Shown here piece by piece: positions 10,399-12,100 of a stretch of DNA of 64,000 nucleotides. A model generated the notes under the pieces. The model made no database searches. It had not been told where the DNA came from and saw nothing but the letters and a program-made list of their open reading frames with translations. Position numbers and translations under genes: made by a program. The DNA lies in assembly GCF_058153355.1 (NCBI RefSeq), contig NZ_CM177019.1; one strand, 5' to 3'. Positions within the stretch are counted from its first letter, which is position 1, and the number at the start of each line of letters is the position of its first letter.

Positions 10399-10420
10399 TC
10401 TTCACTCTGCGCTAAGCAAA

Positions 10421-10510
<90 letters not shown>

Positions 10511-10532: not shown

Positions 10533-10997
10533 ATGAATTATCATCAGTACTATCCTGTCGACATCGTCAACGGCCCCGGCACTCGCTGCACCCTGTTTGT
10601 CTCCGGGTGTGTTCATGAATGCCCCGGTTGCTATAACAAAAGCACCTGGCGGGTAAATTCCGGTCAGCCATTTACCAAAGCAATGGAAGACCAGATCATT
10701 AACGATCTGAATGACACCCGCATCAAACGCCAGGGTATTTCCCTCTCCGGCGGCGATCCGCTGCATCCGCAAAACGTGCCGGATATTCTAAAACTGGTAC
10801 AACGCATCCACGCCGAATGTCCGGGTAAAGACATCTGGGTGTGGACAGGCTATAAACTCGACGAACTCAACGCTGCGCAAATGCAGGTTGTTGATTTGAT
10901 TAACGTGCTGGTCGACGGCAAATTTATGCAGGATCTAAAAGACCCTTCCCTGATCTGGCGCGGCAGCAGCAATCAGGTGGTGCATCATTTGCGTTAG
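10533..10997 (+). CDS. nrdG: Anaerobic RNR activating enzyme NrdG (radical SAM)
   Basis: 154-aa product from ATG 10533 (MNYHQYYPVDIVNGPGTRCTLFVSGCVHECPGCYN...); radical-SAM Cys cluster. Confidence 0.95.
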   Translation: MNYHQYYPVDIVNGPGTRCTLFVSGCVHECPGCYNKSTWRVNSGQPFTKAMEDQIINDLNDTRIKRQGISLSGGDPLHPQNVPDILKLVQRIHAECPGKDIWVWTGYKLDELNAAQMQVVDLINVLVDGKFMQDLKDPSLIWRGSSNQVVHHLR

Positions 10998-11288
10998 TCA
11001 CTCATCCAGCCGTTTTGTCGCGTCTTCATAAACGGCTGAGTTCTCTCTCTTACCAATAGCTATCACCAACACGAGTAACTCTTTATCATTGACCTGATAG
11101 ACCAGGCGATATCCCAGTGTGCGAAGCTTAATTTTGTAGCAGTCCGGCAAATCCCGTAGTTTAGCCGATGGATTGCGCGGCCTTTTCAGCACATCCCCAA
11201 GCTTTTTTTTAAATTGTTCCCGGACTTTCACGCCCAGTTTTTGCCACTCCTTCAGCGCCCGCGGATCAAAAGCCAGTTCATAGTTCAT
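10998..11288 (-). CDS. RelE/StbE-family toxin (type II toxin-antitoxin mRNA interferase)
   Basis: 96-aa product MNYELAFDPRALKEWQKLG...YKIKLRTLGYRLVYQVNDKELLVLVIAIGKRE, typical RelE/ParE fold signature; ATG overlaps the stop of the upstream antitoxin gene by 11 nt. Confidence 0.8.
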   Translation of the reverse strand: MNYELAFDPRALKEWQKLGVKVREQFKKKLGDVLKRPRNPSAKLRDLPDCYKIKLRTLGYRLVYQVNDKELLVLVIAIGKRENSAVYEDATKRLDE

Positions 11289-11520
11289 CCAGTCGGACCT
11301 TAATGGCCTCCTGTGGGTTGGCCAGTCGTTCCCTGACAGTGCGTAACAAGGCTTCTTCACTATCACTGACAGTGAGCGTTTTTACCGGCATTCGTCCATT
11401 TTCCGCAACGTACTGAAACAGCAGCCGCACTGCTTCAGTAGGCGTGATATTTAATTTTTCCAGCACCGCATAAGCCTCATTTTTCAGTTTGTCATCCAGG
11501 CGGACGTTAAGTGTGGCCAT
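11278..11520 (-). CDS. RelB/DinJ-family antitoxin (ribbon-helix-helix)
   Basis: 80-aa product MATLNVRLDDKLKNEAYAVLEKLNITPTEAVRLLFQYV...; ribbon-helix-helix N-terminus; GGAGG RBS 8 nt upstream of the ATG. Confidence 0.8.
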   Translation of the reverse strand: MATLNVRLDDKLKNEAYAVLEKLNITPTEAVRLLFQYVAENGRMPVKTLTVSDSEEALLRTVRERLANPQEAIKVRLDEL

Positions 11521-11544
11521 TATGCCTCCGGTAATTATGAAAAG

Positions 11545-11575
11545 TGTAATGCATTATAGCATTACATATGCATTA
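11545..11575 (-). promoter_or_regulatory. Inverted and direct GCATTAC repeats; candidate operator of the toxin-antitoxin operon
   Basis: gtaatgcattatagcattac (palindrome GTAATGC-N6-GCATTAC) followed by atatgcattac, located 25-55 nt upstream of the antitoxin start codon. Confidence 0.45.
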
Positions 11576-11710
11576 CATTCATTTCTGGAAAACGCCTCGC
11601 AAAAATGAGGACGACACGCAGGAATATGCCGTAGTGAAGATAGATATTGCGGTGATTTTACGAAGGGGAAGAAAGCGTTGGGCGGTAACGTTTCACCGCC
11701 CAATAAGGAA

Positions 11711-12100
<390 letters not shown>

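Follow-up and report, generated by a model that had tools for sequence, protein, structure and literature searches.

A probable RelBE-type toxin-antitoxin operon with a relO-like operator as an old chromosomal neighbour of nrdG

The DNA considered here is a 64,000-nucleotide stretch of contig NZ_CM177019.1 (NCBI RefSeq assembly GCF_058153355.1), referred to below as the window. Between nrdG and cybC it carries a pair of overlapping genes that very probably form a chromosomal type II RelBE toxin-antitoxin operon, read from the minus strand, autoregulated through a RelB operator, and representing an old neighbour of nrdG that has been lost from most Escherichia coli. The initial annotation, made from the sequence alone, had described the pair as a RelE/StbE-RelB/DinJ-type module. 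The family assignments stand, and the label is best refined to a RelBE paralog, nearer to the RelBE of E. coli K-12 than to StbDE or DinJ-YafQ. In RefSeq the products at this site are labelled 'RelE family toxin' and 'RelB/DinJ family antitoxin', and public databases hold the exact sequences of both proteins, filed as E. coli and as E. fergusonii. The latter species, whose name many members of the cluster bear, was weighed as a source of the window and rejected, since nrdD reaches 99.7% identity with E. coli genomes.

Both the sequence and the list of open reading frames (ORFs) contain, as first described, two overlapping minus-strand ORFs of 80 and 96 amino acids (aa), with the antitoxin gene first and an overlap of 11 nt (11278-11288). 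The toxin start is placed at the internal ATG at 11288, although the mechanical ORF list runs on to a GTG at 11366, because this ATG corresponds to residue 1 of K-12 RelE and agrees with the RefSeq annotation of strain E04. The 11-nt overlap is common to all orthologs and indicates that toxin and antitoxin are translationally coupled through it. The antitoxin gene lies upstream, overlaps the toxin gene and shares one promoter with it, which is the organisation of a type II operon. The neighbours are the housekeeping genes nrdDG, cybC and pmbA, and no PADLOC defence-system model matched either protein of the module.

Membership in toxin-antitoxin families, left to a profile search by the initial annotation, is confirmed by that search, in which both proteins score above curated cutoffs. 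The toxin matches PF05016 (4.2e-14, 53.3 bits; cutoff 23) and TIGR02385 RelE_StbE (28.6 bits; cutoff 27.9). Its alignment with the E. coli RelE of PDB entries 4V7K and 4FXE is ungapped over residues 1-94 (phmmer 4e-34), with 63.8% identity. The residues K52, K54, R61, R81 and Y87, whose catalytic roles in RelE are well established, are all identical in this alignment and are kept in all syntenic orthologs. Tyr87 of RelE is required for catalysis (PMC3507626), and the R81A variant serves as a non-toxic form (PMC2812701). The alignment thus identifies the predicted product as a RelE-type toxin with the complete catalytic set of a ribosome-dependent mRNA endonuclease.

The antitoxin is recognised by PF04221 (6e-16, 58.6 bits; cutoff 22.4), by the NCBI RelB equivalog model NF008412 (130.1 bits; cutoff 96) and by TIGR02384 RelB_DinJ (73.8 bits; cutoff 45.65), and its score against the RelB_ParD model is under the cutoff. 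It aligns end to end with the RelB of PDB 4FXE at 47.5% identity. Among the DNA-contact residues of RelB, R7 and K13 are identical in the antitoxin, and S3 and S28 are replaced by threonine, so that the hydroxyl group is kept; a change of either R7 or K13 abolishes relO binding in RelB (PMC2812701). In the C-terminal helix, the RelE-binding motif of K-12 RelB consists of L58, V59, V62 and R65 (PMC3507626), and the antitoxin carries L58, L59, V62, R65 and L66 (L58-x-x-x-V62-x-x-R65-L66). These matches identify the putative antitoxin as a RelB-type ribbon-helix-helix protein with a C-terminal helix motif that would wrap RelE.

The region upstream of the antitoxin contains three copies of an 8-nt box. 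Read on the plus strand, the order is TGTAATGC, ATTATA, GCATTACA, TAT and GCATTACA across 11545-11577, the last 8-mer being the plus-strand form of box 1 (11570-11577, with GCATTAC at 11570-11576). Three of the four TGTAATGC 8-mers of the window are clustered within these 33 bp, which is more than expected by chance. The initial annotation had recorded here a palindrome GTAATGC-N6-GCATTAC with a third GCATTAC. These repeats are present, but the end given at 11575 is short by 1 nt and the boxes are really 8 nt long; the element is better described as a bipartite site of 24 bp that resembles relO, to which a third half-site is added upstream. Its core, formed by boxes 2 and 3, is a perfect inverted repeat whose 8-nt arms stand 6 nt apart. 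The coding strand reads ATGTAATGCAT-ATGTAATGC-TATAAT-GCATTACAC, followed by 15 nt, GGAGG, CATA and the ATG.

The comparison with K-12 is instructive, since relO has been mapped there by mutagenesis and footprinting as four [A/T]TGT[A/C]A hexads in two contiguous 12-bp half-sites (PMC2812701). The genomic sequence of K-12 relO consists of the halves TTGTAATGACAT and TTGTAATTACAA. The box hexad of the window, ATGTAA, conforms to the relO hexad, and the outer hexad spacing of boxes 2 and 3, TGTAAT-N10-ATTACA, is identical to that of K-12 relO, giving the same 24-bp geometry. The inner hexads are degenerate because they double as the -10 element. A consensus promoter scan of the upstream region reported no promoter; this is attributed to the scanner's demand for a -35 element, the site being an extended -10. 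The scanner also flagged the operator palindrome as terminator-like, a candidate that was rejected, since the palindrome precedes the gene and spans the likely start of transcription.

The footprint left by evolution is sharply confined to the boxes. When the upstream regions of 12 orthologs from at least five genera are aligned with MAFFT, with a 1-nt indel between genera, 22 of the 24 box columns are invariant, compared with 17 of 63 elsewhere upstream. The -10 hexamer varies among the orthologs (TATAAT, TAAACT or TATATT) and is always preceded by TGC, while GGAGGCATAATG, in the Shine-Dalgarno region, is invariant in 11 of the 12 sequences. The exact 33-bp three-box pattern occurs at 16 nrdG-linked loci and at none of the non-syntenic loci fetched, in a check that covered the loci of the genome scan and left out those of plasmid RelE/StbE-RelB/StbD modules. 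Upstream of more distant RelB homologs, relO-type hexads are present at 2.2 per 80 nt against a background of 0.17, and a Pasteurellaceae homolog (L022) with an antitoxin identity of only 57.5% has the same TGTAATGC-N6-GCATTACA. Collectively, the relO hexad, the perfect -10 straddled by the boxes and the phylogenetic footprint support the autoregulatory arrangement proposed in the initial annotation, and at the sequence level they argue strongly for the boxes as the predicted binding site of the antitoxin.

By analogy with K-12 RelBE, dimers of RelB, with RelE acting as a stabilising co-repressor, would occupy the three half-sites, occlude the extended -10 and block RNA polymerase. An excess of RelE, or the proteolysis or loss of RelB, would lift the repression of the operon, and free RelE would cleave mRNA at the ribosome's A site. 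The extra half-site, one helical turn upstream, and the internal -10 may alter the stoichiometry with respect to relO.

Table 1. Features of the nrdG-cybC interval in the window (positions are those of the whole stretch).
Feature	Position	Strand	Sequence or product	Basis and remarks
relE-like toxin gene	10998-11288	minus	96 aa	PF05016, TIGR02385, K-12 RelE alignment, RefSeq annotation
relB-like ribbon-helix-helix antitoxin/autorepressor gene	11278-11520	minus	80 aa	PF04221, NF008412, TIGR02384, K-12 RelB (PDB 4fxe_A) alignment
Shine-Dalgarno sequence	11525-11529	minus	GGAGG	direct sequence reading; 4 nt ahead of antitoxin ATG
relO-like bipartite operator core, 24 bp (predicted)	11544-11567	minus	ATGTAATGCTAT and AATGCATTACAC (coding strand)	boxes 2 and 3
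Box 3	11545-11552	plus	TGTAATGC	contains GTAATGC, 11546-11552
Extended -10	11553-11561	minus	TGcTATAAT	direct sequence reading; inside operator palindrome
Box 2	11559-11566	plus	GCATTACA	contains GCATTAC, 11559-11565
Box 1, third distal half-site	11568-11578	minus	ATGTAATGCAT (coding strand)	direct repeat of box 2, 11-nt spacing
Left microhomology copy	11002-11009		TCATCCAG	alignment with antitoxin-only alleles of E200086 and O145
Right microhomology copy	11285-11292		TCATCCAG	alignment with antitoxin-only alleles
Variable segment	10998-11701		module-bearing, or about 36-44 bp with a different hairpin in K-12-like genomes	alignment with E04, GS04 and DH5alpha

The position of the module next to nrdG is shared across genera. 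In the window, the stop codon of nrdG (TAG, 10995-10997) abuts the convergent stop codon of the toxin (10998-11000), not a single base lying between them. When species-representative genomes were scanned with the toxin, 80 loci were returned. Among these, Citrobacter amalonaticus, several Enterobacter species, four Kosakonia species and L029, an unclassified Proteobacteria metagenome-assembled genome, have the pair convergent to nrdG at 3-8 bp from the nrdG stop codon. The locus of Salmonella enterica, found via the antitoxin, is likewise convergent to nrdG, and across Escherichia, Citrobacter, Enterobacter, Kosakonia and Salmonella the distance to the nrdG stop is 0-8 bp. Mean identities among the syntenic orthologs are 84% for the antitoxin, 73% for the toxin and 90% for nrdG, and the nonsynonymous divergence (dN) is 0.10 for the antitoxin and 0.20 for the toxin. 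The ratio dN/dS is about 0.08-0.09 for both genes, a rough figure because the synonymous divergence (dS) is saturated for many pairs, and it points to purifying selection on toxin and antitoxin alike. The stronger conservation of the antitoxin relative to the toxin (10998-11520 of the window against L009-L054 and L089) runs counter to what is usually expected.

Within E. coli the module is uncommon. The survey comprised 5,426 complete genomes, all but one of which (5,425) have the nrdG and cybC flanks, and the full module occupies the site between them in 390-391 (7%). The initial annotation had described this position as free of genes in K-12, and the comparison bears this out: in MG1655 and DH5alpha, 44 bp separate nrdG from cybC. 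The terminator hairpin of cybC (11678-11703) reads TTGGGCGGT...ACCGCCCAA in module-bearing genomes and TTCCCTGTT...AACAGGGAA in K-12-like ones, and the alleles therefore differ by segment replacement and not by simple insertion. Because the module is syntenic at nrdG in other genera, the gene-free state of K-12 is most likely derived, i.e., the result of a loss. Furthermore, the nrdG-linked alleles of E. coli differ by 0.5-4%, like the surrounding backbone, whereas K-12-type relBE, found in 23% of genomes, is at least 99% identical everywhere. Taken with the synteny across genera, this difference from the mobile K-12 relBE indicates that the module is probably an old, vertically inherited chromosomal resident beside nrdG in the Enterobacteriaceae that was lost from most E. 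coli, rather than a recent insertion.

Among the known systems, the closest in kind is the RelB-RelE pair of K-12 (b1564/b1563 of the Qin prophage; PDB 4FXE, 4V7J/K and 2K29), with which both window proteins align over their full length. The two systems share the RelE catalytic residues, R7 and K13 of RelB, the C-terminal RelE-binding motif, the antitoxin-first gene order, and an operator built of [A/T]TGT[A/C]A hexads with a 24-bp, two-half-site geometry. They differ in that the identity is just 64% for the toxin and 47.5% for the antitoxin, and in that the genes overlap by 11 nt in the window and by 1 nt in K-12 relBE. They also differ in location: K-12 relBE has hokD and ydfV as neighbours in the Qin prophage and is found on plasmids too, whereas the window module is core-chromosomal at the nrdG-cybC site and hence does not share the K-12 locus. 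On sequence and position, the module is a paralog of K-12 relBE.

In Salmonella, an apparent ortholog is found in STM4449-STM4450, which a retracted paper (PMC3868539) lists among the relEB-type modules. It is convergent to nrdG-nrdD and has the same 11-nt overlap and an identical three-box operator; its antitoxin is 84-88% and its toxin 68% identical to those of the window. The differences are a toxin of 94 instead of 96 aa, a -10 hexamer TAAACT instead of TATAAT, and an upstream neighbour that is a gene for a PRD/PTS-type regulator instead of cybC. A second catalogue lists relBE2ST (SL4379-SL4380), whose toxin RelE2ST is reported to be growth-inhibitory in a toxicity assay and is absent from the listed non-neutralised pairs (PMC4366850). 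Judging from the gene numbering and the position of the locus, STM4449-STM4450, relBE2ST and the nrdG-adjacent Salmonella pair are probably one and the same.

More distant relatives are found in plasmid modules and in DinJ-YafQ. The RelE/StbE-RelB/StbD stability modules, examples of which occur on small plasmids of Aeromonas, Plesiomonas and Edwardsiella, share the RelE_StbE and RelB_DinJ families and the gene order with the window module, but they are plasmid-borne, act in plasmid stabilisation, and have a toxin identity of at most 66%. The DinJ antitoxin of E. coli shares the RelB/DinJ family (TIGR02384), and its partner YafQ belongs to the RelE superfamily as a ribosome-dependent RNase. This system is nevertheless much more distant: the window pair is matched directly to RelE and the RelB equivalog, and the solved-structure matches of the window toxin do not include YafQ. 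The module must be regarded as already known, being a RefSeq-annotated member of a well-understood family with a Salmonella ortholog in published catalogues. A literature search on relBE together with nrdG or cybC, and on surveys of toxin-antitoxin distribution in E. coli, found no paper on the E. coli locus.

Several points weigh against the reading of the module as a functional, autoregulated RelBE operon. For the window copy itself, we infer toxicity, neutralisation and DNA binding. The operator departs from K-12 relO in having the -10 inside it, degenerate inner hexads and a third half-site at 11-bp spacing, and both stoichiometry and conditional cooperativity may differ accordingly from those of relO. 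The dN/dS values carry the roughness noted above, and the mapping of SL4379-SL4380 onto STM4449-STM4450 is deduced from the order of gene numbers only. Moreover, the toxin gene often decays within E. coli, through deletion, frameshifts and truncation to forms of 64, 82 and 86 aa, which may point to weak selection on the function of the toxin in this species.

One form of this decay is seen in about 60 complete E. coli genomes, in which antitoxin, promoter and operator are kept and exactly the toxin is gone. The toxin was removed by a 283-bp deletion between the two TCATCCAG repeats, both of which encode 'LDE' at the C-termini of the two proteins, and the product is a 79-aa orphan RelB ending in RLDE. 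The deletion alleles (L005, L006 and L092) lie on at least three haplotypes, of which one departs from the window allele at only 1 of 419 nt and the others at 10 and 14 nt; two of the alleles also have different junction bases. Since several haplotypes and a differing junction base are involved, the deletion probably arose more than once. The orphan antitoxin of E. coli O145 RM9467-C1 (L006) additionally has a G-to-A change in box 3 (ACATTACA), which, the toxin being gone, might weaken autorepression. The opposite state, a frameshifted toxin with no more than the final ~22 antitoxin codons left, still between nrdG and cybC, is rarer and was found in L007 (1501-1848; SCPM-O-B-7615, labelled E. 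coli) and L017 (E. albertii).

These losses bear on the alternative that survives best, namely that the module in E. coli is a decaying remnant with a weak or inactive toxin, in which selection keeps the autoregulated RelB for anti-addiction against mobile RelE or as a stand-alone regulator. Such a role would agree with the exact loss of the toxin on at least three haplotypes, with the frequency of truncated toxin forms, with the better conservation of the antitoxin (84% versus 73% identity; dN 0.10 versus 0.20), and with the presence of mobile K-12-type relBE in 23% of genomes. The window toxin, however, is of full length with every catalytic residue present, and the toxins of all other genera are intact and under purifying selection. 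Toxin-first loss is, furthermore, the only viable order of decay for any toxin-antitoxin module, so that orphan antitoxins should arise even if they have no special function, and PMC12301738 describes RelB-RelE recognition as usually cognate-specific. Taken together, the patterns of decay and conservation fit ordinary toxin-first decay, and the remnant interpretation is considered distinctly unlikely.

A broader suggestion, unlikely though conceivable, is that the nrdG-linked RelB with its three-box operator has a toxin-independent role of its own, either as immunity to mobile prophage or plasmid RelE or as a small regulator. It would fit because a single chromosomal site is kept across the Enterobacteriaceae, because the antitoxin evolves about half as fast as the toxin, and because the antitoxin survives intact through apparently repeated, independent microhomology deletions of the toxin only.

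Returning to the RelBE operon as an old resident of its site, a recent horizontal insertion of a mobile island in the lineage of the window strain was also weighed. Mobility is typical of toxin-antitoxin modules, this one is present in just 7% of the complete E. coli genomes, and its between-genus dS exceeds that of nrdG. Against this stand the same position and orientation beside nrdG in five genera (Escherichia, Citrobacter, Enterobacter, Kosakonia and Salmonella), and a locus with no mobile-element genes or flanking repeats. The divergence of the alleles, backbone-like and unlike that of the nearly uniform mobile K-12 relBE, points in the same direction. Searches for close copies on mobile replicons were likewise negative. 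In the plasmid collection the best true plasmid match was 66%, a 96.9% match being a chromosome-sized E. coli record of 4.9 Mb; in the phage collection no true phage carried a close copy, an 83.8% match to the antitoxin query being a chromosome-sized Salmonella contig of 501 kb, and one true phage carries a K-12-type RelB at 47.5% identity. A recent insertion is therefore judged quite improbable.

It is very improbable that the repeats upstream of the antitoxin are mere promoter sequence, a chance palindrome or a terminator hairpin instead of an antitoxin operator. The terminator-like flag of the scanner speaks for such an origin, and, as the spacer is the -10 element, promoter function alone would predict some conservation. 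The invariant columns are nevertheless those of the boxes, while the -10 hexamer itself varies. Box 1 is conserved outside any promoter element, the box hexad equals the mapped RelB hexad, the Pasteurellaceae homolog has the same paired boxes despite its distant antitoxin, and the hairpin precedes the gene, across the probable transcription start, instead of following it. Lastly, a ParE-type gyrase poison in place of an mRNA endonuclease, suggested by the name 'ParE toxin' of the top Pfam match PF05016 and by a further match to PF15781 'ParE-like', can be excluded for practical purposes, given that PF05016 spans the whole RelE/ParE superfamily, that the toxin shares 64% identity with bona fide RelE from end to end and keeps K52, K54, R61, R81 and Y87, that it matches the mRNA interferase model TIGR02385 RelE_StbE, and that its partner is RelB and not ParD, the RelB_ParD score being under the cutoff.

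Additional elements were observed around the module. In the nrdG sense, a hairpin within the 3' end of the toxin gene (11007-11038; free energy -14.8 kcal/mol, z -2.5) is a possible terminator of nrdDG. No terminator for the toxin-antitoxin transcript was found at the locus (window region 10995-11038), and this transcript may therefore run antisense into nrdG. The Rfam search gave no match inside the module. Between nrdD and nrdG, a repetitive extragenic palindromic (REP)-like element at 10411-10452 gave a sub-threshold Rfam match to naRNA4 (41 bits; gathering score 59.5). On the other side, cybC (cytochrome b562; 11711-12097) is an intact 128-aa ORF in the window and an annotated pseudogene in K-12 MG1655.

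Directly upstream of box 1, a second element is shared across genera at about 11579-11610 (minus strand, TTTTTGCGAGGCGTTTTCCAGAA), with the pattern TTTTGnGAG...T(T/A)TCCAGAA. In Salmonella the stop codon of the regulator gene upstream falls within it, and in E. coli it is non-coding; from the similar upstream sequence, it presumably includes the regulator stop in Enterobacter and Citrobacter too. In Enterobacter sp. Bisph1 (L045, 2501-2854), the toxin has lost its stop codon and runs, at 117 aa, into the convergent nrdG, and box 1 of the operator is altered to TGTAATTC.

For the window itself, the analysis adds description, in the form of a correct gene call and a textbook autoregulated module, and its direct value is small. 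The wider interest lies in the comparison between genomes. The natural decay series, which runs from the full module through the deleted toxin and the frameshifted toxin with a lost antitoxin to the empty site, is usable for studying the loss of chromosomal toxin-antitoxin modules. The cross-genus footprint of the predicted RelB operator suggests that the relO hexad code and its 24-bp geometry extend to a paralog with the -10 inside the site. Finally, the module would be a stable chromosomal resident and not a mobile element, with the empty site of K-12 most likely a derived state.

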